Shown piece after piece: positions 1,264-30,844 of a DNA stretch of 38,984 nucleotides. The stretch's first letter is position 1. Every line of letters begins with the position of its first letter. A model generated the notes under the pieces. The model searched no databases. It worked only from the letters and a program-made list of their open reading frames with translations, and had not been told where the DNA came from. This DNA comes from a virus (Duplodnaviria > Heunggongvirae > Uroviricota > Caudoviricetes): IMG/VR virus record IMGVR_UViG_2690316241_000009. The stretch is one strand, 5' to 3'. The translations under genes were made by a program, and so were the position numbers.

Positions 1264-2157
1264 CTATTTCCAGTTACAAGCAGCTTGAAGTGGTTTTAGC
1301 GCGTTTGACAGGCCGTTTAAATTGAAAGTTGCACTTACAGGGCTCTCATTATAAGGAGTTATTTTTGTATACATTTTGTTTGAGTTGGCTAGTTTTCGGA
1401 TGAAATCAATGTCATTACCTTTATAAAAAACAGCCTTTGTATCTGTAGATACTAGCCAGTTTCGCTCAACTGCTTTCTGTTTATCAAGACGATAAAGCAT
1501 GCTGGTTTGTTCAAGGCCTAAATATACATCCCAACTAAGAAATACTTCGGTTTTCTTTTCTCGGCAAGCTATAAACAGAGTAGGAGTAACCGCTTCTCCA
1601 AATGGAGTTCTGATATAATCATCACTTTCTAACGATAAAATTACATTTTTCGAATCATCAATTGGCGATGTAGTAATGGATGTGTGCCATTTTCCTACAT
1701 CTGTGGCTTTCTCTAATTTTGATTCAGCTTGAACAGCTTTATCCTGTGGGAATAGTTTATCGTAGCAGTTTAGTCTGGCTTCTTTATCATTTTCTGCTCG
1801 GCATTTAGATATCTCAGAAAGATTTGGTTGCTGAGCCTCTGTTGTTACTGGCTTTTCCGTTTTAGATTTTGAGTTTACAGATGGAGTAAATGTTGGAGAA
1901 AAAAAACGATCATAACAAGATAAACGTCTGTCATCATCTTTCTCATCAGGGCATTGATCTCTGCTTTCGAATTTTTCAGCAACTTTCGTTCGAGTCGGTT
2001 GTATTGACTTATCGTAACAAGAAAGTCTGTCTTTATTATTTTCTATTGCTCGGCACTGGAGTACTGCATTGAAGTTATTATGTTCAGTTGCTGCGTGAAC
2101 AGGCAGTACACTAATTGATATAAATGATGCACCTATAGAAAAAATTATATTTTTCAT
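1264..2157 (-). CDS. Secreted protein with three Cys-containing repeats, unknown function
   Basis: N-terminal signal peptide (MKNIIFSIGASFISISVLPVHA). Three copies of a C-x(n)-RLxCYD[KR] repeat followed by a ~150-aa C-terminal domain. AT-rich relative to flk. Confidence 0.6.
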   Translation of the reverse strand: MKNIIFSIGASFISISVLPVHAATEHNNFNAVLQCRAIENNKDRLSCYDKSIQPTRTKVAEKFESRDQCPDEKDDDRRLSCYDRFFSPTFTPSVNSKSKTEKPVTTEAQQPNLSEISKCRAENDKEARLNCYDKLFPQDKAVQAESKLEKATDVGKWHTSITTSPIDDSKNVILSLESDDYIRTPFGEAVTPTLFIACREKKTEVFLSWDVYLGLEQTSMLYRLDKQKAVERNWLVSTDTKAVFYKGNDIDFIRKLANSNKMYTKITPYNESPVSATFNLNGLSNALKPLQAACNWK

Positions 2158-2161
2158 TTTG

Positions 2162-2494
2162 TTATCCTTTTGGTTTAGTAAGAAACACTAAAATTCCGAT
2201 AATGATATCGCCAATAACCCATAAACTTCCAATGGTAATTAAACCTAAGCCTGTACCAATAACTACACCGGCTTTTTCGGCATCGGATGTTGCATTATTT
2301 ATTATTTCACTAGTGCCTCCCAGTCCAACTAAAAGCGTATAGATCATAAAAATATTAAATAATATAAAAATCCACTTAATGAGCTTTCCAAAAAATGAAC
2401 GCTTAAGTTTTTTTATTTGTTTACCGCAAGCAGGGCAATACAATGCTGAATCGCTCACCTCTTTCTGGCATTCAGGACATTTGATTAATGCCAT
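2162..2494 (-). CDS. Zinc-ribbon membrane protein, unknown function
   Basis: N-terminal CPECx(n)CPAC zinc-ribbon motif followed by two hydrophobic helices. Sits 5 bp upstream of the 1264..2157 gene, so probably co-transcribed. AT-rich. Confidence 0.6.
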   Translation of the reverse strand: MALIKCPECQKEVSDSALYCPACGKQIKKLKRSFFGKLIKWIFILFNIFMIYTLLVGLGGTSEIINNATSDAEKAGVVIGTGLGLITIGSLWVIGDIIIGILVFLTKPKG

Positions 2495-2755: not shown

Positions 2756-2896
2756 TTACTGCTTACACTGTAAGAACGCCGCAAACTCCGCTCCCCAGAA
2801 ACTCATCCGTATTTCGCACAGCGAACCGTGCAACATCCAGATGATGAGGATTACCGTCACGCAGAACGTGATGGCTGTAAGCGATTTTTGCGACAT
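2756..2896 (-). CDS. Hok/Gef-family type I toxin (46 aa), absent from the ORF track
   Basis: Manual translation gives MSQKSLTAITFCVTVILIIWMLHGSLCEIRMSFWGAEFAAFLQCKQ: a TM helix followed by the SLCEIR motif and an AAF motif, as in Hok proteins. A 9-bp perfect stem hairpin (gacggggga / tcccccgtc, ~2733..2754) lies just 3' of the stop. Confidence 0.55.
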   Translation of the reverse strand: MSQKSLTAITFCVTVILIIWMLHGSLCEIRMSFWGAEFAAFLQCKQ

Positions 2897-3086
2897 AGCA
2901 CTTGCTCCTTTTCCGGAGAGGCGCTAACCTTTCACTTGCTTAGGGTAGACGGTTAGGGCCTCGGTTAAACAAAAGTGTTTTCCGGGGCCTTTCCACATCT
3001 GGCCTTCGGGTATTCCCTCCGACCATCAGCCGAAAGGCACCCGCGCGTAATCTATCGCTTTTTTGTTACTCCGGCAATTCTGCTTG

Positions 3087-3347
3087 TTAATTCTTAGGTA
3101 AAGGCAAACTCATCTGATTGTTTCCCCTGTGTGAAGCTGGTAGCTCATGCCACGGGATACCTTCTGAAGAGTGAACGCCGGAGGCGTGTTTCGATGTGAA
3201 TTTATGGAAAGCTTCCAGTGTTGAGAAGCATACGCCGCATTCCAGATTGTTACACTGGTAATATTTTTGCCGCACGGTGTTTGAATCATTTTCCGGACGA
3301 CTTGTGCGGATACGGGCAGATGCGGCACAAAGCGGACAACGGAACAT
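3087..3347 (-). CDS. ogr: Ogr/Delta-family zinc-finger late-gene activator
   Basis: Starts MFRCPLC and has the CxxC...CxxxxC pattern with conserved RTSR and YYQC, matching P2 Ogr. Lies at the prophage end, transcribed outward as in P2. Confidence 0.85.
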   Translation of the reverse strand: MFRCPLCAASARIRTSRPENDSNTVRQKYYQCNNLECGVCFSTLEAFHKFTSKHASGVHSSEGIPWHELPASHRGNNQMSLPLPKN

Positions 3348-3538
3348 AGCGACCTCCCTTAACGTGGTGTTGCCGCTATTCTAGATTGTACGATCCCTAA
3401 TTCCAACTAACAGCTCGCTCTGTGCGAAGAGTGAAAATTGAACTTTCAATAGTTGTTGAACTTCCATACATCCAATGTGAAAATTCATACGTTCATAATA
3501 GTTAAAATTTAAAATATTGTATATCAGGTGAATAAAGC

Positions 3539-4561
3539 ATGGGAAGAGATATAACGCTGTACCCTAAAAAAGCAACTAGAAACGAACTTAAAAATTACCT
3601 TGAAAATTTAGGTTTTAAAAGGTGTAAACATTTGTGGGAATGGCCCCAAGGAACGTTGAATTACTCTTGGTTTGATGATACGGACTTCAAATCTACAGAT
3701 GGAGTTTCGGCTGATATATATCCTGTTTCAAATGACGAACTACACATATCTGGTAATAAATGGGCATTGCATGTGCGTAATTTATATAGCGCTAGTTGGC
3801 ATGATGTAAAAATGCTTAATGATGTTCTAAAAGGCGCACGGAGTCTTTTTGGTGGAACACTTATAGGTGATTATGGGAAAAATAGGTACGCTCCTCTATG
3901 GAAGGATTCTAGTAGTCCGATCAGTCGTGGCATTTCTTCAATATTTAATCATGTCCATCATGAGATTTCCGCTGTTAAACATGCCTTACCTGAACCTTCT
4001 ATTAAATTAAACCTACCGGAAGATGGCGGCTTATCCGAATACTTTGATTACATGCAATGTATGGATCCCAGTAGAGTTATATATAATGGATTAGTACCTT
4101 TTGCGGTTGCTATGTTTGAATATTTTTTCTCTAGAGCTTTTCAAATACTTATAAAGTACGATCCTTTCGCAATAGCAAAAAGAACATCGTATAAGCAAAA
4201 AGTTGATTTTGATATTCTGCTTGAGATAGAGAAAGGAAATATTTCAATAGAAAGTGTTATTGCAAGAAATTACACTTTTCAAAACTTAACCCACCTAAAT
4301 AAAGCATATAAAGAGTGGCTGGATATAGATGTGAGAGCGATTCTTTATAAGAAAAAAAGAATTGGAAAATCAGTTGATTTTCTTGAGAATCGAATTTCTG
4401 AAATCATACAATATAGACATGGGATAGTTCATCACTTTGAGTTGGATAGGACCTTAAATCGGGATGGATATATTCATATATTAGATGCGATAGAAAAAAG
4501 CATAATTGAATTTATCCATTACATAGAAGGCAAATACAAATTTAAATTAAATGCGTATTAA
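3539..4561 (+). CDS. AT-rich cargo protein (340 aa), candidate HEPN-like abortive-infection effector
   Basis: Inserted between ogr and D on the opposite strand, with a strongly AT-rich promoter region (3348..3538). C-terminal YRHGIVHH fits the HEPN R-x4-H motif. No P2 counterpart. Confidence 0.6.
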   Translation: MGRDITLYPKKATRNELKNYLENLGFKRCKHLWEWPQGTLNYSWFDDTDFKSTDGVSADIYPVSNDELHISGNKWALHVRNLYSASWHDVKMLNDVLKGARSLFGGTLIGDYGKNRYAPLWKDSSSPISRGISSIFNHVHHEISAVKHALPEPSIKLNLPEDGGLSEYFDYMQCMDPSRVIYNGLVPFAVAMFEYFFSRAFQILIKYDPFAIAKRTSYKQKVDFDILLEIEKGNISIESVIARNYTFQNLTHLNKAYKEWLDIDVRAILYKKKRIGKSVDFLENRISEIIQYRHGIVHHFELDRTLNRDGYIHILDAIEKSIIEFIHYIEGKYKFKLNAY

Positions 4562-4586
4562 GCAATCAACCTTACATAGGGATGAC

Positions 4587-4611
4587 AAAGTCCGCTTCTG
4601 ACACGGAGCGG
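4587..4611. terminator. Hairpin between the convergent cargo gene and D
   Basis: gtccgc...gcggac stem in the 120-bp gap between two convergent stop codons. Confidence 0.4.
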
Positions 4612-4681
4612 ACCGTCGTTTATGTTTAATTCTATACTGTAAACTTGCCAGTTTAAGTCTGAGCTAATATGTCTAAGTTGC

Positions 4682-5791
4682 TCACTCTGTTTCTGCTATC
4701 CATTCCGGGATTTTTGCCTCAAGCTCAAGCTGTGTGGTAAAGCCGCTGTTATCAATGGTGTGCTCGGCTTTTGCAATAATCCAGTCCTGATTATCAATCT
4801 CGCTTTTAAAGCCTGTTACCGTGCCATGCATTTCGGGGTAGAGTTCTGCGCGTCCGCGTGCCAGCATGATGGAGAATGATGCGGCTCCGCGTTGTAGCTG
4901 CTGCCACTTTGCCGCCGCTGCGCGTCTTGCTGCCTGCTCGTTCTGATAAGTCTTGCGTAACACAAACACATTGCCTTCCGCGCCTTCCATATAATCACCT
5001 TCACGGCTGCTGCTTTTCTCCTTTTTGGGTTTTGGCGGTTTGCGGCGTTTCACGCTGACTTTTTTCTTTTTCCCGTAATTAAGATCAAGCCAGTAAGCGC
5101 GTACCCCCGTATACGCCTCGCGGTCAGCAATGCGGAACTGATGGCGATCGCCGCTGCTGCGTGTGATGGCGAACGATGGCAACGGCTGGCCCTGTGCGTT
5201 CACGCCACCGCCGGGCATGATGAATAACAGATTACCGCTTTTTACCGTGGTGATTGCGCCCAGCATTTCCGCCATGCGCGTAAGGAAGGACATGTCACTT
5301 TCTTCGGTCTGGTCGGCGTGGTCGATTTCGATATGCATCAGCATTTCGCTGATTTGCGGTTTCAGACCGTACCGATGAGCGATGGCGGATACCACACGCT
5401 CAACGGTCACATCATGCCAGGACACCTCACGTTTAACGTTAAATTCATCCCGAAAATCTGCGCTTCTGGCTGAAACAGTCAGCCTGTCCGGCGGTCCTTC
5501 GTGTGCGATTTCATCGACAATGTAAGAGCCTTTTTCTGTCAGCGGTTCGCCTTTCCAGCCAATGAGAACCGTCAGGCGCGCGCCCCGTGGCGGTAGCTGC
5601 AACTGACCATCCGCATCATCCAGCGTGATGGTGAGCTGGTCCGCTTCAAATCCCCGGTTGTCGGTCAGTGACAGGCTCATCAGGCGCTCTGCCACGCCTG
5701 ACAGCGTTTTACCCTCCGCGAGAATATCAAAATCCGGCATTTTCACGGGGTCTGTGCTCTGACTGAGCAATTGCATGGTGGTGTCGGTCAT
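4682..5791 (-). CDS. D: Tail protein gpD
   Basis: Matches P2 gpD along its length (MPDFDILAEGKTLSGVAERLMSLSLTDNRGFEADQL..., EGDYMEGAEGNV..., GFTTQLELEAK). Start chosen at MTDTT (5791) because a GGGAGGG Shine-Dalgarno precedes it; the ORF track extends to 5812. Confidence 0.9.
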   Translation of the reverse strand: MTDTTMQLLSQSTDPVKMPDFDILAEGKTLSGVAERLMSLSLTDNRGFEADQLTITLDDADGQLQLPPRGARLTVLIGWKGEPLTEKGSYIVDEIAHEGPPDRLTVSARSADFRDEFNVKREVSWHDVTVERVVSAIAHRYGLKPQISEMLMHIEIDHADQTEESDMSFLTRMAEMLGAITTVKSGNLLFIMPGGGVNAQGQPLPSFAITRSSGDRHQFRIADREAYTGVRAYWLDLNYGKKKKVSVKRRKPPKPKKEKSSSREGDYMEGAEGNVFVLRKTYQNEQAARRAAAAKWQQLQRGAASFSIMLARGRAELYPEMHGTVTGFKSEIDNQDWIIAKAEHTIDNSGFTTQLELEAKIPEWIAETE

Positions 5792-5947
5792 CTTTCCCTC
5801 CCTGTGCGGCATGGTCGCATGTGCGTGCGGAGGGGGTTACTGCTTTTTGTTGTCGCCGGGTCGGGAGAACGGCGCAGGGGTGAGATTACGCGCGTGGTGG
5901 GTGATGATTGTTGCCGAATCATTTAACGGATACAAGGGGCTGAAGCT

Positions 5948-7132
5948 ATGAGTGAAACTCGTTTTCATGGTGCCCGTGTTACGGAAAATACCGACCTGGT
6001 AACAGCGATTAACGATGTTGATTCCAGCGTTATCGGTATCGTGGCAACGGCGGATGATGCGGACGCGAAGCTGTTCCCGCTGAACAAGCCCACACTGCTG
6101 ACCCGCGTCAATGACGTGCTGGGAAAATGCGGGACAACGGGGACGCTTTATCGTGCGCTTAAGGCCATCGCAGACCAGGTGAGCACAAAGGTGATCGTCG
6201 TTCGCGTGGCTGAACACAAAGAAGAAAACGGAAAGACGCAGGATCAACTGGTTATCGGTGGTTCTGAATCTGACGGCAGCTATACGGGGATGTATGCGCT
6301 GCTTGTTGCAGAGCAGGATGAAAGCATCGGATACCGTCCGCGTATTCTGGCCGCGCCGGAGCTGGACACGGAGGCGGTGACAAAATCCCTGTGCGTGATT
6401 GCGGGTAAACTGCGCGCGTTTGTGTATGCCGCATGTCATGGTTGTAACACGATGGCTGAGGCGATTACCTACCGCCAGAAATTCAACGAACGTGAGGTGA
6501 TGCTCTTATGGCCTGACTTCATCGCCTACAACCCGAAAAGTGGCAAAAACGAAACGTTCCCCGCGCCTGCTTATGCGTGCGGCCTTCGTGCGTACATTGA
6601 CCATGAGCAGGGCTGGCACAAATCGCTGTCCAACGTTCCGGTTAAAAATGTGCTGGGGATGTCGAGGCATGTGTTCTGGTCGTTGCAGGCCGAAGACAGC
6701 GATGCCAACAGCCTCAACAACAAAGAAATCACGACCATTATTCGTCGCAACGGGTTCCGCTTCTGGGGCAACCGCACACCGGAAACGAACGCCTACATCT
6801 TTGAGGTGTATACCCGAACCGCACAGGTGCTGGCTGATTCAATTGCGGAAGCGCAGTTTGAAACCATCGACAGTCCACTGACGCCTGCGAACGTGAAAGA
6901 TGTTATCAGTGCCATCAGGGCAAAACTGGATTCACTGGTTACTGCCGGGAAACTGATTGGGGCGTCGTGCTGGTATGACGTGGTGGATAACGGCACCACG
7001 AATTTACGTCAGGGGCGTGTGCGTATTCGCTACAAATATACGCCTGTTCCCCCGCTGGAAGACATGGAGCTTTACCAGTCGTTTACTGATGAATTCTTTG
7101 GTCCCGCATTTGCGGTGCTGGGAGGTGCCTGA
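5948..7132 (+). CDS. FI: Tail sheath protein gpFI
   Basis: Matches P2 FI (FPLNKP, LRAFVYAA, WPDF, EQGWHKSLSNV, GFRFWGNRT, YTPVPPLE). AGGGG Shine-Dalgarno upstream. Confidence 0.9.
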   Translation: MSETRFHGARVTENTDLVTAINDVDSSVIGIVATADDADAKLFPLNKPTLLTRVNDVLGKCGTTGTLYRALKAIADQVSTKVIVVRVAEHKEENGKTQDQLVIGGSESDGSYTGMYALLVAEQDESIGYRPRILAAPELDTEAVTKSLCVIAGKLRAFVYAACHGCNTMAEAITYRQKFNEREVMLLWPDFIAYNPKSGKNETFPAPAYACGLRAYIDHEQGWHKSLSNVPVKNVLGMSRHVFWSLQAEDSDANSLNNKEITTIIRRNGFRFWGNRTPETNAYIFEVYTRTAQVLADSIAEAQFETIDSPLTPANVKDVISAIRAKLDSLVTAGKLIGASCWYDVVDNGTTNLRQGRVRIRYKYTPVPPLEDMELYQSFTDEFFGPAFAVLGGA

Positions 7133-7644
7133 TGGCTGTACCAAAACATCTTCGCTTTTTTACGTTGTTTGTGGATGGTGAAAACGAAGTGGGTAAAGTG
7201 ACATCCGTCACGCCACCCAAACTGACGCGCAAAACCGACAGCTATCGTGGTGGTGGCATGATGGGGGCGGTAAGTATTGATCTCGGTCTGGACGACTCCG
7301 CGCTTGATGCGAGTTTTGTCATGGGGGGAGCTGTTCGTGCGCTGTTCCTTAAATATGGCGGCACGATTGACGGCACGCTGCTGCGTTTTGCGGGTGAATA
7401 CTACACCGATGCAGAAAGCGATCTGTATGAAATCGAGATGCGCGGGCGTGTGACGGAAATTGATATGGGGGAGGCCAAACAGGGCGAAGCCACATCACAC
7501 ACTTACGCTGTCAAAAACACCTACTACAAGCTGAGCGTTAACGATCGCCCGCTGTGGGAAATCGACCTGTTGAACCACATCTACCGGAAGGACGGCAAGG
7601 ACATTGTGCCTGACCGCATTCGTTCCGCGCTTGGGCTTGGCTGA
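7132..7644 (+). CDS. FII: Tail tube protein gpFII
   Basis: Matches P2 FII (KLTRK..YRGGGM, DLGLDD, MRGR..EIDMGEAKQGE). Confidence 0.9.
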   Translation: MAVPKHLRFFTLFVDGENEVGKVTSVTPPKLTRKTDSYRGGGMMGAVSIDLGLDDSALDASFVMGGAVRALFLKYGGTIDGTLLRFAGEYYTDAESDLYEIEMRGRVTEIDMGEAKQGEATSHTYAVKNTYYKLSVNDRPLWEIDLLNHIYRKDGKDIVPDRIRSALGLG

Positions 7645-7699
7645 TAAGTAATATGCAGGCGGCGCAGTGCGTCGCCTCTGACTGAAAAGGAGACAACTG

Positions 7700-8074
7700 A
7701 TGAAAGATATCGATACTGAAACCCGGAATAACACCGTAGCGGATGATGTGACGGCAGGTGAGGATATGGCTGTCGAACGTGGTGTAAAACTTTCCCGGCC
7801 AATTGAGCGTGGTGGCGAAAAAATCACATATGTGGAGATCACCGGGGCTATTGAGCAGGCGGGATCCCTGCGTGGTCTGTCGCTGTCTGATGTGCTGAAT
7901 CTGAAAGCGGATACCATGTTCACGCTGTTGCCTCGCGTGACCTCGCCACGACTGGATGAAGTGATGATTAAAAAAATGTCGTCACGCGATTTTATTCAGT
8001 TGTGCGCTGTGGCTGTAAATTTTATGAGCGAGCCAGACTCTGGCGCGAAGAGCGTGCAGGAGACGGCAGCGTAA
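7700..8074 (+). CDS. E: Tail assembly chaperone gpE
   Basis: Sits between FII and T with an AAGGAG Shine-Dalgarno. A -1 frame ORF overlaps its 3' end, the gpE/E' arrangement. Confidence 0.8.
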   Translation: MKDIDTETRNNTVADDVTAGEDMAVERGVKLSRPIERGGEKITYVEITGAIEQAGSLRGLSLSDVLNLKADTMFTLLPRVTSPRLDEVMIKKMSSRDFIQLCAVAVNFMSEPDSGAKSVQETAA

Positions 8075-8238
8075 TCACCCTGGTGTGCTTTGAGCACATC
8101 GAAGATCTGGTGGCGGATATTGCCGCCATTTTTAACTGGTCGCCCGCCGAAATCTTCATGATGACGCCCGGCGAAGTGGTTAGCTGGCGCGAGCGGGCGG
8201 CACTTCGCAGCGGGAATGCAGACAATGAAGACTCTTGA
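7700..8238 (+). CDS. gpE+E' fusion made by programmed -1 frameshift (predicted)
   Basis: The -1 frame opens immediately after a stop at 7969-7971 and runs to 8238, overlapping the T start. Candidate slippery sites in the E frame are the A7 run at 7970-7976 and A_AAT_TTT at 8017-8023. Confidence 0.55.
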
Positions 8239-11038
8239 TATCCGGGTCGCTTTCAGCGCCGTTGACAGGCTGACCCGGCCTGCCGAAAACGCCCGCCGCC
8301 TGATGGGGCAGTTTGGTGACTCCATCCAGCGAACGCAGGGGGCGATCAAAAATCTCGAGCGTCAGGCGCGTTCATTTGAGCGCGCCCGTGACGCTGTCAG
8401 TAAAGCGGATGCGGGCATCGTGAAAGCACGACGCCAGCTTAACGCCCTTAATCAGTTACAACGCACGGGTACAGTGCTCAGCGAAAAACAACAAAAGCTG
8501 ATGCAGCAGTTAAGCACCCGGCTTGAACGCCTGAATGAATCGCGCACACGGGAAATTCAGAAAATGCGGGAACTTGGCGGAGAGCTGAAACGCCACGGCA
8601 TTTCCCTGACAGGCAGCGATAACACCATCCAGCAGGCCATCAGACGCACCGAACAGTACAACAACCAGCTTGAACGCGAACGGCAGGCGCTTGCGCGTGT
8701 AACGCGGGCGCGTGAGCGGTATTCGCGCGCGCAGGAAACCGCGGGAAAACTGAAAACAGGTGGTGCACTGGCAACAGGTGCGGCAGCGGCGGGCGGCTAT
8801 GCTGCCGGGCGTTTTTTGCAGCCCGCGATTGGGTTCGGGAAAGAGATGTCCCGCGTTCAGGCACTGACGCGAATCGACAAAAACAGCCCACAGTTTAAGG
8901 CGCTGCGTGAGCAGGCGTTAAAACTTGGCTCTGAAACGCAGTTCACCGCTGGAGATGCCGCCAGTGGACAGGCATTTCTTGCAATGGCTGGTTTTACTCC
9001 GCAGGCCATTCAGGCTGCGCTTCCCGGCGTGCTGAGCATGGCAACGGCTGGCGGTATGGATCTCGGCGAGACGGCGGATATTGGCTCAAATATCCTGACG
9101 CAGTTCGGCCTCTCTGCTGACCAGATGGACCGGGTTGGCGACACGCTTACAGCGGCGTTTACCCGTACCAACACTGACCTTCGCGCGCTGGGCGAAACCA
9201 TGAAATATGCAGGTCCGGTGGCGGGTAAGCTGGGAATATCGCTGGAGCAGGCCGCTGCGATGGCGGGCGTGCTGGCGAATATGGGCATCAGAGGGAGTGA
9301 TGCCGGGACGGCAATGCGTGCCAGCCTGGCTCGTCTGGCATCACCGCCAAAGGCGGCAGCAGAGGCGCTGAAAGAGCTGGGTGTGGCTGTCTCTGACGCG
9401 AACGGCAAAATGCGCCCGATGGAGGATGTACTGGCCGACCTTTATAAAGCCACCCGCAAATACGGGGAAGTTGACCGGGTATCGTTCTTTAAGGACATTG
9501 CCGGAGAAGAGGCTTTCACATCGTTTATGGCGCTCGTTGATGCAGCGGGTGACGGCTCCTTACCCAAACTGAGAAAAGAACTTGAAGGCGCGCGCGGTGA
9601 GGCTGAACGCACAGCAAAGGTTATGGACAACAACCTTGACGGCGATCTGAAATCACTCGGCAGTGCATGGGAAGGGTTGCGCATCCGCATTGCAGATCTG
9701 ATTGACGGTCCGCTGCGTTCTGTCACGCAGTGGCTCACGCGGGTGGTATCAAAGGTGACGGCGCTGGCGCAGGCCCATCCGGCACTGACGCGCCAGCTAC
9801 TGATTGCAGGTGGGGCATTGCTGGCGATGACTGCAACGGTCGGCTCGTTGTCGTTGGCTATTGGTGTGCTTGCTGGCCCGCTGGCAAAACTGCGTCTTGG
9901 CTTTTCCCTCCTGACCGGATCAATGAATGCTGTCAGGCTCCTGCCAGCACTATGGGGAATGGTGACGGGTTCCGTTTCGTTACTGGGGGGCGCTATCGGG
10001 GCGCTGTTCAGCCCGGTCGGATTGATTGCTGCTGCGTTTGTGGCTGCGGCGGTTCTCATCTGGAAATACTGGGAACCCATCAAGGCGTTTTATGCAGGGG
10101 TGTTCAGTGGGATTATGGAACGGCTGGCTCCGTTGCGCGAAACCTTTGAACGGTTCGGTCCAGTTTTTGATGTCGTGCGCGATGGGATTATTCAGGTCTT
10201 TAACTGGTTTAAATCGCTGCTGTCACCGATGGAGTCCAGCAAGGAAACGCTGGATAAATGTACCAGTGCTGGCGAGGTATTCGGCAGGGTACTCGGTGGA
10301 GCGATAGAGCTTGTCCTGACGCCAACAAAAGCATTGATGGATTCACTGGCGTGGATACTTGAAAAGCTCGGAGTGCTTCCGGATGAAGCGGAACGGGCGA
10401 GAAAGAAAATAGAGAACGCTTCAAAGGCTCCTGTAATGTGGGAATGGGATCCGGTTCTCAAGAAAATGGTTCAGAAACCATGGACTCCCGGCCCGGCCCC
10501 GTCAGATAAGGTCGACGACAAAAAAGGCGATAAACCCAGAGACAACAAACCGCTCACAGACAACAATACCGGTACGCTACGCAGACTCAGCAAAATTGCT
10601 GATAACACAGGTAAGCTGGTTGATGAGACGAAAAAACGCATTGGCCCCGGCGATATTGTCTTTAAGAACCTGCCCCGCGCACTTGCTGTTCGTGGGGAGT
10701 GGCAGGAGCGGAAGATTGCGCAGGTCAGTAAGCCTGCCCCCGCAATTACTATCACACCCGTGGTTCCGGCTCCGCTGCCTCCGGCGCTGGTCCCTGTTGT
10801 TGCGGCCAGCTCCCGCCCGGTGGCGGAGGCTATACGATCGCCAGTGGCATCAGTTCCTGCAACTTCCCGTAACCGGGAGCCTGTTGCCTCCGGATTTGGC
10901 GGTGAAATTCATGTTCATCTGCATAACGTTGTTACACAGAATCCCCGCGAACTGGCGAAACTGATTGGCGAAATGGTCAGGGCAGAAATGGAACGGCGCG
11001 CCCGTGCCGGGCGTGGCAGTTTTTACGATAAAGATTGA
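8216..11038 (+). CDS. T: Tail tape-measure protein gpT
   Basis: 940-aa protein with a coiled-coil N-terminus, a Gly/Ala-rich hydrophobic central region and a Pro-rich C-terminus, in the T position after E/E'. Confidence 0.9.
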   Translation: MQTMKTLDIRVAFSAVDRLTRPAENARRLMGQFGDSIQRTQGAIKNLERQARSFERARDAVSKADAGIVKARRQLNALNQLQRTGTVLSEKQQKLMQQLSTRLERLNESRTREIQKMRELGGELKRHGISLTGSDNTIQQAIRRTEQYNNQLERERQALARVTRARERYSRAQETAGKLKTGGALATGAAAAGGYAAGRFLQPAIGFGKEMSRVQALTRIDKNSPQFKALREQALKLGSETQFTAGDAASGQAFLAMAGFTPQAIQAALPGVLSMATAGGMDLGETADIGSNILTQFGLSADQMDRVGDTLTAAFTRTNTDLRALGETMKYAGPVAGKLGISLEQAAAMAGVLANMGIRGSDAGTAMRASLARLASPPKAAAEALKELGVAVSDANGKMRPMEDVLADLYKATRKYGEVDRVSFFKDIAGEEAFTSFMALVDAAGDGSLPKLRKELEGARGEAERTAKVMDNNLDGDLKSLGSAWEGLRIRIADLIDGPLRSVTQWLTRVVSKVTALAQAHPALTRQLLIAGGALLAMTATVGSLSLAIGVLAGPLAKLRLGFSLLTGSMNAVRLLPALWGMVTGSVSLLGGAIGALFSPVGLIAAAFVAAAVLIWKYWEPIKAFYAGVFSGIMERLAPLRETFERFGPVFDVVRDGIIQVFNWFKSLLSPMESSKETLDKCTSAGEVFGRVLGGAIELVLTPTKALMDSLAWILEKLGVLPDEAERARKKIENASKAPVMWEWDPVLKKMVQKPWTPGPAPSDKVDDKKGDKPRDNKPLTDNNTGTLRRLSKIADNTGKLVDETKKRIGPGDIVFKNLPRALAVRGEWQERKIAQVSKPAPAITITPVVPAPLPPALVPVVAASSRPVAEAIRSPVASVPATSRNREPVASGFGGEIHVHLHNVVTQNPRELAKLIGEMVRAEMERRARAGRGSFYDKD

Positions 11039-11044
11039 GGAGTC

Positions 11045-11539
11045 ATGGCCATGATGATGATCTACGGCATGTTTGTTTTTGAGCTGCGCACATTGCCGCA
11101 TCAGCAGTTACAGCAAAACAAAAGCTGGCGGCATGTGAAAAATGAACGCGTTAACCGTTCAGCAAGCTGGCAGTATATCGGCGCAGGTGATGATCGCATC
11201 GTGCTTTCCGGCGTGCTTTATCCTGAAATTACAGGTGGCGAAGTGTCGCTTTCGTTGCTGACCACGCAGGCATATACAGGACGCCCCTGGCCTCTGATTG
11301 ATGGTGTCGGGCAGATTTACGGCATGTATGTACTGACTGAAACGAATACGACCCGTTCCGAGTTTGATCGCTACGGCAAGGCGAAAAAGATAGAGTTTTC
11401 ACTGACTCTTGAACGCTGCGATGAGGATTTGCGGGAACGCCTGCAATCCTCATCGTTCAGTGATATGCTGTCCGGCTTCAAAGATAAGGTCACATCATCC
11501 CTTAACAGCGCGGCCAGCTCCGTTAAAGGGCTGTTCTGA
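11045..11539 (+). CDS. U: Tail protein gpU
   Basis: Starts MAMMMIYGMFVFEL, resembling the P2 gpU N-terminus (MMMVLGLFVF). GAGGAG Shine-Dalgarno upstream. Confidence 0.85.
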   Translation: MAMMMIYGMFVFELRTLPHQQLQQNKSWRHVKNERVNRSASWQYIGAGDDRIVLSGVLYPEITGGEVSLSLLTTQAYTGRPWPLIDGVGQIYGMYVLTETNTTRSEFDRYGKAKKIEFSLTLERCDEDLRERLQSSSFSDMLSGFKDKVTSSLNSAASSVKGLF

Positions 11540-11542
11540 TTT

Positions 11543-11584
11543 AACACAAAAACCGCTAATGGCCAGATTAGCGGTTATTTTGTT
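11543..11584. terminator. Bidirectional intrinsic terminator between U and the invertase gene
   Basis: Perfect 10-bp stem (aaccgctaat / attagcggtt) with a 6-nt loop, A-run on one side and T-rich on the other, between two convergent genes. Confidence 0.7.
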
Positions 11585-12176
11585 TACTCTTCTCAATTGT
11601 TCCACTTGATTCTCCTGCGGGGTGGTAACGATAAATTGTCGATATACCAATGCTGTAAATTATTGCCAGTTGTTTTCTGTCGTGACCGTTTTTAATCAGC
11701 CTTGCTATTTGCTCATGCTGTTCTTTTGTCAGCTTCGGTCGACGTCCGCCTGTGCGCCCCCGTGCGCGCGCTGCCGCCAGTCCGGCCAGTGTACGTTCAA
11801 CAATTAATTCACGTTCCATTTCAGCCAGGGCACCCATCACGTGGAAGAAAAAACGCCCCATTGGAGAAGATGTATCTATGCTGTCGGTCAGACTGCGAAA
11901 ATTAATCCCTCGCTCCCGTAGTTCTCCGACGAGAGAAATCAGATGTTTCATGCTTCGCCCAAGGCGATCCAGTTTCCAGACAACCAGCGTGTCACCTTTT
12001 TGAAGCTGCTTTAAAGCGCGTTTTAATCCCGGTCGGTCTGTCTTTGTTCCGCTTAATTTATCTTCAAATATTTGTTCACATCCTGCACAAACAAGAGCGT
12101 TTCGTTGCAGGTCTGTATTCTGGTCATTTGTTGATACCCTTACATAACCAATCAGCACACTGAATCTCCCGTCCAA
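11568..12176 (-). CDS. Serine-recombinase DNA invertase (Hin/Gin/Pin/Cin family)
   Basis: N-terminus LIGYVRVSTNDQNTDLQRNAL carries the catalytic Ser motif. GDTLVVWKLDRLGRS and FFFHVMGALAEMERELIVERTLAGL match Hin/Gin closely. C-terminal HTH present. Confidence 0.9.
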   Translation of the reverse strand: MDGRFSVLIGYVRVSTNDQNTDLQRNALVCAGCEQIFEDKLSGTKTDRPGLKRALKQLQKGDTLVVWKLDRLGRSMKHLISLVGELRERGINFRSLTDSIDTSSPMGRFFFHVMGALAEMERELIVERTLAGLAAARARGRTGGRRPKLTKEQHEQIARLIKNGHDRKQLAIIYSIGISTIYRYHPAGESSGTIEKSKQNNR

Positions 12177-12212
12177 AAGCGCAAATCATGCCATGCAGGC
12201 CGGAAACGGCCA

Positions 12213-12238
12213 TTATCTAAAACCTCGGTTTACAGGAA
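12213..12238. repeat. gix/hix-like 26-bp inversion site, invertase-proximal
   Basis: ttatctaaaacc-TC-ggtttacaggaa, close to the Gin/Hin crossover consensus. Reverse-complement partner at 15165..15190 matches at 24 of 26 positions. Confidence 0.8.
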
Positions 12239-12283
12239 ACGGTAAACAAGGCTGGTAACGCCGTTCAGCGTTCCGGCGATAAA

Positions 12284-13126
12284 ATGACCGGAGAACTGAA
12301 AATTGGAACGATGAATGCGCTGCGAATTTTTAATGATGCCTTCGGTCTTATTTTCCGCCGTTCAGAAGAGTCCCTTCATTTCATCCCTACGGCTGAAGGA
12401 CAAGGCGAAAACGGTGATATCGGCCCATTAAGGCCATTCGCTATAAATCTAAGAACAGGTGCTATATATGTCAGCCACGGGGCCAAAATTGAAGGAGGTC
12501 TAGCTATTGGTGCTACTGATAACGCACTGGGTGAAAACTCCATTGTTCTGGGAGATAACGACACCGGATTTAGGCAAGATGGAGATGGTATTATTAGCTT
12601 CTATTCAAATGGTTCGCGCATCGGACATATTGATGGGTTAGGATTACATCTTTATAAAGATATTGAATCTAATTGCAGCAATTTTAGATTAAAAAGTAAT
12701 TACCGCCACCACATTACATTCACCAACGAAGACGGAAGTATTCGTATGTTTTTGTGGAAAGATAACGGTGGTGATGGTGTTCATATTAATAACGGTTCAG
12801 ATGGTGGTGGTGATTTCATTTTTAAAACAGATGGGGGATTTGCGCTGGGAAGTGGTGCGCAAGTTGCGTCTAGTGGCGATATTTATGGTTCAGTGTGGGG
12901 AAACAACTGGTTAAGCACATGGCTGCATAATCATGTCGTTCGGGATATTCGTCTTGGCAGCATTGAATATAAAAACGTATGGCGCGACTACGGCTTTGGC
13001 GATGCGTCAGGTTATGTTTTAACAGCCGCAATTAACGGCAATGCGGATGATCTTGTCGACACTGTTGCCAGAAGGCCAATTCAGAAATTGATTGGGGGAA
13101 TATGGTACAACGTGGGGAGTGTTTAA
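12284..13126 (+). CDS. Alternative tail-fibre C-terminal cassette (silent in this orientation)
   Basis: The frame is open back to the crossover site and encodes ...LGLQETVNKAG..., paralleling ...LGLQETVNQAS... in H. C-terminus ([18 protein letters not shown]) resembles the H C-terminus. No promoter or N-terminus of its own. Confidence 0.7.
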
Positions 13127-13127
13127 G

Positions 13128-13655
13128 ATGATGCACTTAAAAAATATTACTGCTGGCAACCCTAAAACAAAAGAACAATACCAGCTAACTGAAAAAGCGG
13201 GCGTGGTATGGCTCTTTTGCGAAGATGGCAAAAACTGGTATGAGGAACAAAAGAATTTTCAGCCAGACACCATAAAAATTGCTTACGATGAGAACAACAT
13301 CATCGTTGCTGTCAGTAAAGACGTTTCAACTATTAATCCTGAAGGGCTAAGCATAGTTGAAGTTCCTGATATTACGGCAAATCGTCGCGCAGACAATAAC
13401 GGAAAATGGATGTTTCTGTATGGTAAAGTAGTAAAGAGGGAATATACAGAACAGGAACTGCAACAACAGGCCGAATCACAAAAGGCCGCGTTGCTTTCTG
13501 AAGCAGAAAGCGTTATTCAGCCACTGGAACGCGCTGTCAGGCTGAACATGGCAACAGATGAGGAGCGTAGCCGACTGGAAGCATGGGAGCGCTACAGTGT
13601 TCTGGTCAGCCGTGTGGATACGGCAAATCCTGAATGGCCACAAAAGCCTGAATAA
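13128..13655 (+). CDS. Alternative tail-fibre assembly chaperone (Tfa/gpG-like)
   Basis: Starts [21 protein letters not shown], identical over about 20 residues to the other tfa and then diverging. Follows the alternative fibre cassette. Confidence 0.8.
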
Positions 13656-28283: not shown

Positions 28284-29981
28284 TTATTTATCCTCTTTAA
28301 TGATTTTGTTATAGTCAAAATCCCAAATTTTTCTGTCAATGCCGTTTGTTGGTGTAACCCGGTAGAATAAGGATCGTAATCCATTGTAAAAATACTGGAG
28401 AGATTTCTGATTTTCTGGTTTGTCTAACCAGTTTCTTGTAATCATTCTAAAGAATTCAATATGCTGATTGAATATTTTCTTATTTAATTTTCTTCTTAAA
28501 CCGGATGTAGACTCATGGTTGTCTTTTCTTTTCTGAATTTCAGTTTCAATTGATTGTAGTTGAGGACGTATCTTGAGTAAGTATAACTCTTTCGAAAAAC
28601 CATTGTTAATTATATCCTGATTTTCCCAGAAGGAAGAGTCGTCGGTATTATAAAGGTGCTCACAATGCTCAAATATCAATTGTTCTGGAGCTTTTTCTCC
28701 CGGCAGTGATATAATTCCTCTCTGATCCTCAGGGCTGTGATCTCCATCAAGAATACAAATTGATTTTAACGAGGTTTCCTTAAGATGAGAATCATTAAAA
28801 ATAGTTTTTAAATTGTCTGCACCAATGAAACAATCAATTAAGTGAAATGAATTACTAACTATAGCAAAATTTGGATATTTGCTTATCCAATAACCAAGTA
28901 TTTCATTAAATAAAAAGCGAGCTTCTTCATCTTCCGTGAAAACTGGTATCTTGTTCCTTGTGTATATCTCATCCTTTGTTTGTGTTTTCAGATACATTGT
29001 TATTTTTAATATGTCAGGATTATCTAAAAGCAGAGCCTTTGTAATATTGTTAATTAGATAGACAACATGGTATTTTTTATGAAAAGCATATTCTAGCAAT
29101 GTCAGACTGTGCGTTGTGAAAAATACTTGAATCTTATAATCTTTTGCGTATTGATAAATTTTATCTAATAATCTTATCTGTAAAGAAGGATGTAAAGTGG
29201 CATCAAATTCATCTATTAACAGAATGCTTTCTTTTTGATCAGTGGATTGAATAAGTGATTCAAAATAATACCTAAGGCTAACTAATGCCTTGATTATAAT
29301 GAATATATTGTCTTCCCCGGATGATATGGTATTAGAATCAATTGCTGGGTTATCGGTATCAAATAATGGGCCAGCTTTAAAATCTCCGATATTGTTTGAT
29401 TCTATATTTATAATATTAATGCCCAAAAGTTCATTATATATTTTCGATATATAACCAACATACTCTTCTGGTAGGTTTAACGGAATTTTTGTAAGGGCGT
29501 CGTCTTTAGTTTCACCAATCGGGAATAGTCGCGATAATCCAAGATATAAAACTGGTTTAGCTGGAAGTGATTGTTTTTCTTTTCCGCGTGGGTATACTGG
29601 TTTGATAGCATACCGTTGCGCTTCGTCTGGATTTTTTGAGTTGTGCTTTCTGAAGTCTAGTGTGCTATGATCCAAATAGTTAATAGAAAATAACACACCT
29701 TTTGTTCCCTCTGCCGGATCGGTGTAATTTTTTGATTCCCTAACAATTGCTTCCATTTTGGGGTTGGCTATTTTGTTTATAGATTTTATAACTCTAACAC
29801 AATTACTATTTGAATAATTTTGTGATCGAGATGGTGGCATTTGGAAACCATTGCTAATTAAATGAAGCAATGTTGTCTTACATGTCCCATTGGTTCCTGA
29901 TATTATATTGATGTCTTCATTGAATGAGAAGTCAATATCTATCAGTTTCTTAAATTTTTTAAAACTAATTTCTTTAATCAT
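28284..29981 (-). CDS. OLD-like ABC ATPase with probable C-terminal TOPRIM nuclease domain
   Basis: Walker A GTNGTCKTT, signature-like SSGEDN, Walker B LLIDEFDATLHP and H-loop FFTTHS. C-terminal PVFTEDEE then ICILDGD fit TOPRIM E...DxD spacing. AT-rich. Occupies the position of P2 old. Confidence 0.7.
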   Translation of the reverse strand: MIKEISFKKFKKLIDIDFSFNEDINIISGTNGTCKTTLLHLISNGFQMPPSRSQNYSNSNCVRVIKSINKIANPKMEAIVRESKNYTDPAEGTKGVLFSINYLDHSTLDFRKHNSKNPDEAQRYAIKPVYPRGKEKQSLPAKPVLYLGLSRLFPIGETKDDALTKIPLNLPEEYVGYISKIYNELLGINIINIESNNIGDFKAGPLFDTDNPAIDSNTISSGEDNIFIIIKALVSLRYYFESLIQSTDQKESILLIDEFDATLHPSLQIRLLDKIYQYAKDYKIQVFFTTHSLTLLEYAFHKKYHVVYLINNITKALLLDNPDILKITMYLKTQTKDEIYTRNKIPVFTEDEEARFLFNEILGYWISKYPNFAIVSNSFHLIDCFIGADNLKTIFNDSHLKETSLKSICILDGDHSPEDQRGIISLPGEKAPEQLIFEHCEHLYNTDDSSFWENQDIINNGFSKELYLLKIRPQLQSIETEIQKRKDNHESTSGLRRKLNKKIFNQHIEFFRMITRNWLDKPENQKSLQYFYNGLRSLFYRVTPTNGIDRKIWDFDYNKIIKEDK

Positions 29982-29998
29982 CTATATCATCCTTAAAT

Positions 29999-30844
29999 TT
30001 AAATGTCAGGGATTTTTATACCATGATTATAAATGATAATTTCTAGACCTTTTTTCTTATCTTGTGCAGTATAATTAAGCGTATAATCAGTCATGTTGAA
30101 TTCATGATATATGCTTTTTATTTCAGGCACATTGTCATAAGACACAACCCAAGGTAGTTGAATTTCCCGTAGTGTATTAGCGATTTTTACATGATCATCA
30201 TGTTTATAAAAATTTCTATATAACTCTGCTCCTTTAACATAATAAGGTGGATCAAGATATATTAGACTATTTTGGGGTAGCAATGCTTTTTGGTGTAGCA
30301 GAAAATCTACAGCATCAAAATTCGATACGTAAATTTTCTCCTTATATGCACCAATTAGTTCAATCCTTTTAATTAACTCTTTTTTGTTGAATCTTGCATC
30401 TAACTTCCATGGTCCTTTTTGTTCTTTCCCTCCAATAACGCCAGCCTTAAGTATTCCTGAACGGTTTGTTCTATTTAAAAAGAAAGTTGATAATGCGACT
30501 TCAAGCATACTATATTTATCATTGTTTAGGAGTATCTCCTTTTGAGTATGCCAATTTTCAATAGTCACAGGAACTTCATCAATCATTTCACATAACAGAT
30601 CGTTATGATTAACCACTGCAAACCAAAAAGAATAAAGGGCAGGATCAATATCATTTATGAAGATATTTTCAACAAGACCGTTAAGGAGCAAACCTAATGC
30701 TACACCGGCTCCACCTGCATAAGGTTCAGCATAACATCCACCAATGAGATCATTGTTGCGGAGTATTTGTTCAATATGTGGCAAGAATTTTGCCTTACCT
30801 CCCGGATAACGAAGAGGGGTTCTAAAATGAGAAGGCTTTGTCAT
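29999..30844 (-). CDS. Dam-family (D12 class) N6-adenine DNA methyltransferase
   Basis: N-terminal RYPGGK, AdoMet-binding EPYAGGAGV and catalytic DPPY motifs. AT-rich. Lies 17 bp upstream of the ATPase on the same strand. Confidence 0.85.
   Translation of the reverse strand: MTKPSHFRTPLRYPGGKAKFLPHIEQILRNNDLIGGCYAEPYAGGAGVALGLLLNGLVENIFINDIDPALYSFWFAVVNHNDLLCEMIDEVPVTIENWHTQKEILLNNDKYSMLEVALSTFFLNRTNRSGILKAGVIGGKEQKGPWKLDARFNKKELIKRIELIGAYKEKIYVSNFDAVDFLLHQKALLPQNSLIYLDPPYYVKGAELYRNFYKHDDHVKIANTLREIQLPWVVSYDNVPEIKSIYHEFNMTDYTLNYTAQDKKKGLEIIIYNHGIKIPDI

Follow-up and report, generated by a model that had tools for sequence, protein, structure and literature searches.

A predicted HEPN RNase gene carried as horizontally acquired cargo between ogr and D in a P88-like Escherichia coli prophage

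HEPN effectors in prophage hotspots are an established theme. HepS, encoded by the Gifsy-1 prophage, is a solo HEPN abortive-infection (Abi) protein which senses the tail-tip protein J and cleaves tRNA (PMC13043305). ApeA and DARNA (PD-T7-3) are single-gene systems with two domains, a sensor and a HEPN domain, and abort infection by cutting tRNA after a small-molecule or single-stranded DNA trigger. These three, each with a different trigger, are currently the clearest models of one polypeptide that both senses infection and kills translation. RiboL-PSP-HEPN (PF18735), described as a distant relative of AbiD/AbiF (PMC3710099), has a conserved Rx4H motif and is predicted to be an mRNA-targeting RNase of conflict systems. 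Here we analysed a gene for a protein of 340 amino acids (aa), hereafter the cargo gene, which lies between the late-gene activator gene ogr and the tail gene D of an Escherichia coli prophage of the Peduoviridae (IMG/VR record IMGVR_UViG_2690316241_000009). The whole stretch of 38,984 nt is called the window. The C-terminal domain of the cargo protein is very probably a HEPN RNase. We also consider it reasonably likely that the gene as a whole is a stand-alone sensor-plus-HEPN RNase abortive-infection gene, acquired horizontally as a 'moron'.

The cargo gene is therefore no categorically new thing when it is set beside these systems, and its proposed plan, one polypeptide with a sensor and a HEPN domain, is like that of ApeA and DARNA. 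However, domain order and partner domains differ: DARNA consists of an N-terminal HEPN domain and a C-terminal helical Pds5-like domain. HepS (PDB 9oik) is a chain of 218 residues with a single HEPN domain, whereas the cargo protein has an extra N-terminal alpha/beta domain of 125 aa, and no sequence similarity could be detected between the two. The Rx4H motif is common to the cargo protein and PF18735. However, the contexts from which this family was named, fusion to an endoRNase L-PSP or a ParB operon, were found neither in the cargo protein nor at its loci, and the N-terminal domain has not been described for PF18735. Searches with the PADLOC models, including the PD-T7 and ApeA families, gave no match, and PF18735 was the only HEPN family of Pfam that was recognised. 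The two-domain architecture is uncharacterised so far and is a new feature. New as well is a gene of this kind that is missing from the PADLOC-DB 2.0 model library.

The features of the region are listed below by position in the window.

3087..3347, minus strand: ogr, late-gene activator with an Ogr/Delta zinc finger (Pfam PF04606, E 1.1e-12; RefSeq 'ogr/Delta-like zinc finger'); left border of the slot
3348..3412, minus strand: conserved left flank with an ogr promoter-like site from the promoter scan (-35 TTGGAA 3406-3401, 17 nt, -10 TAGAAT 3383-3378)
3413..3538, plus strand: cargo-specific upstream region (TTGAAC 3456-3461, 17 nt, extended -10 TGtGAAAAT 3476-3484; Shine-Dalgarno 3526-3531)
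3539..4561, plus strand: cargo open reading frame (ORF) of 340 aa, the sole ORF of the 1334-bp gap between ogr and D
3539..3916, plus strand: N-terminal domain, aa 1-126, a conserved beta-alpha-beta3-alpha-beta sandwich and proposed sensor/regulatory domain
3917..4561, plus strand: predicted C-terminal helical HEPN domain, aa 127-340 and the stop codon (E194 at nt 4118-4120; R293-H-G-I-V-H298 at nt 4415-4432)
4586..4681, no strand assigned: conserved right flank with a bidirectional terminator-like hairpin at 4590-4613 (terminator scan) and a CTGAGCTAATAyrTCTAA box
4682..5812, minus strand: gene D, tail/baseplate hub, late control D (Pfam PF05954, E 2e-17; PHROG 52 tail protein, E 1e-164); right border of the slot

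The HEPN assignment of the C-terminal domain is well supported by sequence conservation and by the predicted structure. HEPN domains are diagnosed by an Rx4-6H motif with a polar residue (N, D or H) after the R, by an upstream acidic residue (Ex3[K/R]) near the active site and by a motif that closes helix 3, ahead of the loop which leads to helix 4 (PMC3710099). The motif with its polar residue and the upstream acidic residue were all found in the cargo protein. In the AlphaFold model (pLDDT 84), R293-H298 ends a predicted helix at 282-299, which is followed by a loop (300-307) and another helix (308-333), while short extra helices and a beta-hairpin (224-281) stand ahead of helix 3. In an alignment of 30 sequences reaching down to 20% identity, just five positions were invariant: G55, D89, E194, R293 and H298. 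H294, the polar residue after R293, was kept in at least 90% of them, and R293 and H298 were invariant in 26 close homologues too. The position +4 from E194 is K or R in most divergent members; the clade of the window has S at +4 and R or Q at +5. An R-x4-H motif alone is not significant: chance would give about 0.7, and the protein has another, starting at R308, that is not conserved; the motif at R293 is meaningful because it is conserved.

The first-pass annotation, made by a model from the DNA letters, had noticed that the string YRHGIVHH fits the HEPN signature, and this is borne out by the invariance of R293, H298 and E194, by the end of helix 3 at the motif and by the profile matches. 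PF18735 was the sole Pfam family matched by the C-terminal half (aa 181-329, E 1.2e-4). It was matched by 25 of the 30 family members at E < 0.01, with a best value of 2.6e-8, and most close homologues have a precomputed match to it. Overall, the first-pass interpretation came out largely right, and as proposed in every part open to computation. Foldseek against the PDB returned nothing below E 0.01. Structural similarity to solved HEPN domains was rated as present. No PDB chain was matched by phmmer or hmmsearch, whether the query was the protein alone or the family profile. In the N-terminal domain, which holds the other two invariant positions (G55 and D89), S52, S86, N94 and an FGG turn were near-invariant.

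The cargo gene is real and under selection. The chance of a 340-codon open frame at the composition of the ORF is about 4e-13, a Shine-Dalgarno sequence AGGTGA (3526-3531) precedes the ATG, and the N-terminus MGRD is kept in homologues. The protein has the RefSeq entry WP_000532200.1, labelled hypothetical protein. Several earlier statements about the gene held: it lies between ogr and D on the strand opposite to both; its GC content of 0.336 (0.258 at third codon positions, GC3) is far below the phage backbone, for which D and FI give 0.54; and P2 has no gene at this place but 81 bp which hold the ogr promoter. The likening of the phage to P2 was correct for the P2-like group but not for P2 proper. 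The phage is P88-like (Gemsvirus/Xuanwuvirus), a group whose FI-U tail block has the reverse orientation with respect to D-ogr; in the window the whole FI-U block (5948-11539, plus strand) is inverted in this way when compared with P2. Escherichia phage 500465-2 (Gemsvirus) showed 99.6% identity to the window across the region under study, and the integration site of the window prophage adjoins flk.

The cargo gene had been taken for an orphan, which did not hold. A word-indexed search gave 295 matches, and the best 120 of them were full-length proteins of ~340 aa with 64-87% identity from Pantoea, Proteus, Shewanella, Aeromonas, Pseudomonas, Methylococcaceae and Halochromatium. When 1.8 billion representatives were searched exhaustively with a profile, 342 clusters (50% identity) came out, whose members were 320-370 aa long with both halves of the protein covered, apart from short fragment-like matches. 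Furthermore, a scan of one genome per species with the close alignment as query found 36 loci at 60-70% identity in Gamma-, Beta- and Deltaproteobacteria, Bacteroidota, Patescibacteria, Cyanobacteria, Actinobacteria and Spirochaetia. Identity of 60-70% across phyla, together with a patchy distribution, means frequent horizontal transfer, and the cargo gene spreads in this way. No copy was found by tblastn in the plasmid collection, and in the phage collection the sole record that carried the gene was that of the same prophage. A 4.2-kb contig (DEQA01000038.1) of a metagenome-assembled genome named 'Planococcaceae bacterium' encodes a HEPN protein 100% identical to that of the window; it also holds an identical hok protein, an identical partial D protein and ogr (74%, tblastn), and is almost certainly an Enterobacterales contig in the wrong bin.

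The neighbourhoods of the homologues were searched for a partner gene. No homologous neighbour was common to more than three of 35 loci, and those three were syntenic Saccharibacteria; the cargo gene is therefore a stand-alone, single-gene module. The ORF list of the slot had no antitoxin-sized ORF and none like a minimal nucleotidyltransferase (MNT), RnlB or LsoB. TRF found no tandem repeats between 3300 and 4700 at a score of at least 30, and Rfam gave no match inside the slot. Three known kinds of partnered HEPN or Abi systems were rejected on these and related grounds. A type II toxin of the RnlA/LsoA kind (RNase LS, anti-T4) would call for an adjacent antitoxin, which was not seen, and phmmer and hmmsearch gave no match to RnlA or LsoA in the PDB. 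For a HEPN-MNT pair (HepT/MntA) no adjacent minimal nucleotidyltransferase was found, the neighbours being ogr and D in the window, with no conserved neighbour elsewhere. A type III-like RNA antitoxin as in AbiF- or ToxIN-type systems was rejected with the tandem-array and Rfam results.

The gene family sits in defence hotspots and islands. For example, one homologue lies directly after the Hachiman helicase HamB, one in an island beside smpB that also holds AbiTii, two integrases and a type I restriction-modification system, one in a lambdoid prophage with a SIR2/PDC-S25 gene, and one in an integrase/AlpA/DUF927 island beside a UvrD-like helicase. In a metagenome contig (L059, 637-1659), an 81%-identical copy follows two tail-fibre assembly genes of another P2-like phage, at its Z/fun hotspot. 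With the copy of the window in ogr-D, one single-gene cargo is thus found in two P2-like hotspots.

The ogr-D junction is a cargo slot of P88-like prophages. The ogr-D backbone occurs in ~1450 of 5,426 complete E. coli genomes (about 27%) and the cargo gene in 65 of the 5,426, with all 65 copies in the ogr-D slot. A conserved structural or regulatory gene of the lineage, the finding that the first-pass annotation had named as contrary to its proposal, is not what a presence in 65 of ~1450 backbone genomes describes. A systematic sample of 40 rows was taken from the backbone matches, and 27 rows had ogr and D in one match. Among these 27, 20 junctions were empty (1432-1435 bp), two held the cargo gene and five held other cargo; four further rows matched the D side only, and the two examined hold larger inserts. 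The suggestion of a further cargo site was thus confirmed by the junction survey, the site being empty in most relatives and holding at least eight other unrelated genes elsewhere, which are as follows.

465-aa unknown protein
DUF2971 protein, matching the PADLOC candidate PDC-S31
alpha/beta hydrolase
DUF3800 protein
SEC-C-motif protein
GmrSD_N+HNH nuclease
221-aa unknown protein with an IS3 element
132-aa unknown protein, in phage 520873

The cargo segments checked were all low in GC (0.34-0.43). Conserved flanking core genes, an empty state and many unrelated cargos, known defence genes among them, are the features by which a defence hotspot is recognised. The ogr-D junction shows them, with the GmrSD_N+HNH protein and the PDC-S31 candidate on the side of defence. 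The P2 hotspots old/tin (gpA-gpQ) and Z/fun (after the tail-fibre genes) likewise have conserved core genes on both sides (Rousset 2022, PMC9122126; PMC13586616), and their cargo, like that of ogr-D, is AT-rich, unrelated between strains and includes defence genes. The difference is in position, as ogr-D lies between the D terminator and the ogr promoter. This position is not named as a hotspot in the P2 hotspot papers (PMC9122126, PMC13586616), and a search of the literature for a D-ogr cargo site or for the phage accession found nothing specific. The slot has been described at most sketchily before, and is the third new feature.

For the limits of the slot, the window was compared with an empty junction and five other occupied junctions. 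The 65-bp left flank, including TCCAA and TATTCTA, was common to all occupied variants with the five other cargo types, and its arrangement with respect to the ogr start codon is similar to that of the annotated Pogr in P2. On the other side, ~25-95 bp beside D were common to most occupied variants. The variable cargo proper is ~3413-4585. The hairpin at 4590-4613 (-18.4 kcal/mol on the plus strand, z -3.6; -16.4 kcal/mol on the minus strand) was present in four of the six cargo variants and the CTGAGCTAATAyrTCTAA box in five of the six; neither was seen in empty junctions. The hairpin terminator that had been noted beside the gene is real, but it belongs to the flank of the slot and is not specific to the gene. 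As a part of the conserved right flank that occurs with differing cargos, it was ruled out as the cargo gene's own terminator, and it stands between D and whichever cargo gene converges on D.

Empty junctions have 40 bp only. They look like a deletion between two TCTA(A/G)G microrepeats in which the -35 element was lost. In empty prophages (L007, 2762-2801) the -10 alone is left before ogr and the -35 position is inside the 3' end of D. The expression of ogr may differ between occupied and empty prophages.

The AT-rich promoter region of its own, which had been proposed for the gene, stood as a separate upstream region, and the promoter in it is a weak consensus match, partly conserved in the Pantoea copy. 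Upstream regions of the homologues were not conserved, with the partial exception of Pantoea, and no common regulatory element could be defined. The sequence TTGTTGAA...CCAATGT upstream of the cargo gene was common only with the upstream region of the Pantoea homologue. The region also has short direct two-copy repeats.

The abortive-infection reading that we favour may be put as a series of steps. The protein would be made in the lysogen from its own weak promoter and be kept inactive. On infection by another phage, a trigger would switch it on by way of its N-terminal domain or of a change in its oligomeric state. A pair of HEPN domains would then bring together their R293-x4-H298 motifs, with E194 assisting, into a composite active site of a metal-independent endoribonuclease. 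The activated enzyme would cut cellular RNA, and tRNA anticodon loops are the most likely target by analogy with HepS, ApeA, DARNA and PrrC. Translation would stop and the infection be aborted, which would protect the lysogen population and the prophage. We infer the RNase activity, its target, the activation by dimerisation, the sensor role of the N-terminal domain, the expression in lysogens and the protection against phage from sequence, model and comparison with these known systems.

Several observations weigh against this reading. Besides the Foldseek result, the PF18735 score of the window protein (22.5 bits) is below the gathering cut-off of 28.4. PADLOC-DB 2.0 gave 0 families at E up to 1, NCBIfam gave no match for the cargo protein, and its PHROG match (E 0.09) was not significant. 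No ligand- or protein-binding family could be recognised in the N-terminal domain, and the candidate promoter (TTGAAC/TGtGAAAAT) is below the consensus threshold of the promoter scan. Several homologues stand alone among housekeeping genes with no defence neighbour. Furthermore, a HEPN RNase with no antitoxin to restrain it could be toxic to its own host.

A different function would be that of a toxin-antitoxin (TA) or addiction toxin, in which the HEPN RNase would mainly stabilise the prophage or be restrained by an unrecognised antitoxin, and defence would not be its main role. The N-terminal domain might act as this antitoxin in cis, or the part might fall to a distant gene or a small RNA. 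We regard this as unlikely: no conserved neighbour was found in 35 loci, the slot has no MNT/RnlB/LsoB-like ORF, tandem repeats or Rfam RNA, and the slots in which the gene is found otherwise hold nucleases and defence candidates. With no partner ORF, repeat array, Rfam family or conserved neighbour, the TA-pair and type III readings were not adopted as the main explanation. Abortive infection and a TA function are compatible with each other. An RNase that serves the phage itself is also improbable in our judgement. It would degrade transcripts of the host or of competitors in lytic growth, counter host defence, or hit P4-type satellites that exploit ogr/delta. In favour of this, the gene adjoins ogr, is divergent from it and lies inside the late region, and P4-like satellites are known to parasitise P2-like phages (PMC9122126). 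However, the slot is empty in most related prophages and therefore nothing there is needed for the phage life cycle; most of the homologues are found not in phages but in chromosomal islands, across many phyla; and the gene runs against the late genes, with an upstream region of its own.

That the protein has the HEPN fold but is not a conflict RNase at all seems very unlikely to us. It would then be a regulator that binds RNA or nucleotides, or a housekeeping-type factor of RNA processing that came along by chance. Non-catalytic HEPN families are known (PMC3710099), and several homologues are found among metabolic genes. However, non-catalytic HEPN domains typically lose the Rx4-6H motif, while R, H and the upstream E are invariant here, and both the patchy distribution by horizontal transfer and the location on mobile elements speak against housekeeping.

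The reading as a sensor-plus-HEPN abortive-infection gene could be extended to one in which an N-terminal sensor of a new infection signal, a cassette shuttling between hotspots and an exchange site at ogr-D are taken all together; we hold this combination to be speculative and rather doubtful as a whole. The signal would be a small molecule derived from a nucleotide, or else a specific phage protein; on detecting it, the N-terminal sensor would activate the HEPN RNase by allostery, and the family would be a new stand-alone sensor-effector defence system. The single-gene cassette would shuttle between P2-like hotspots (ogr-D, and Z/fun in the metagenome phage) and islands across phyla. The ogr-D slot would be a general, promoter-proximal site of cassette exchange, with the conserved flanks as recombination substrates.

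The family is compact and partner-free, with 340 aa, an intact HEPN site and a conserved N-terminal domain, and offers a practical route to another sensing mechanism. Its carriers include clinical and animal E. coli lysogens, and the family crosses phyla. The ogr-D slot is now bounded at the sequence level in P88-like prophages, and can be mined for defence genes (DUF3800, SEC-C, the 465-aa unknown).

Other parts of the window were noted as well. A second AT-rich island, with a GC of 0.32 (28284-30844, minus strand), is found between the replication gene and the portal/terminase genes, at the classic old/tin (gpA-gpQ) hotspot. It encodes a methyltransferase with a match to PD-Lambda-5_B (E 9e-122) and an ABC-type ATPase of 565 aa with AbiL/PtuA/GajA/AriA-like matches, and looks like a PD-Lambda-5-type defence pair. 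Beyond ogr there is a hok/sok-like module (2756-3042, minus strand) with a 46-aa Hok/Gef-family ORF (2756-2896) and a sok-like antisense RNA at 2883-3042 (Rfam RF01794, 51.9 bits, below the gathering score of 59). The module was present in every related prophage examined, whether or not the slot was empty.

An AT-rich block of two genes (1264-2494, minus strand) stands between flk and the hok module. It encodes a VasI/TagO-like protein of 297 aa (PF11319, E 2.6e-25; its score is far under the NCBIfam equivalog cut-off) and a zinc-ribbon membrane protein of 110 aa, and each of the two matches a PHROG family of unknown function. The block was missing from prophages at other integration sites and may represent additional cargo at the end of the prophage or an islet of the host. 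A strong palindromic element (1170-1260), immediately downstream of the VasI-like gene, gave several spurious hairpin-type Rfam matches on both strands; a terminator, or an att/REP-like element close to where prophage and host meet, could account for it. At 11568-13655, a serine DNA invertase (Resolvase + HTH_7, E 1e-50) adjoins an alternative tail-fibre C-terminus and a tail-fibre assembly gene on the opposite strand, and this part is probably an invertible host-range segment at the Z/fun position.

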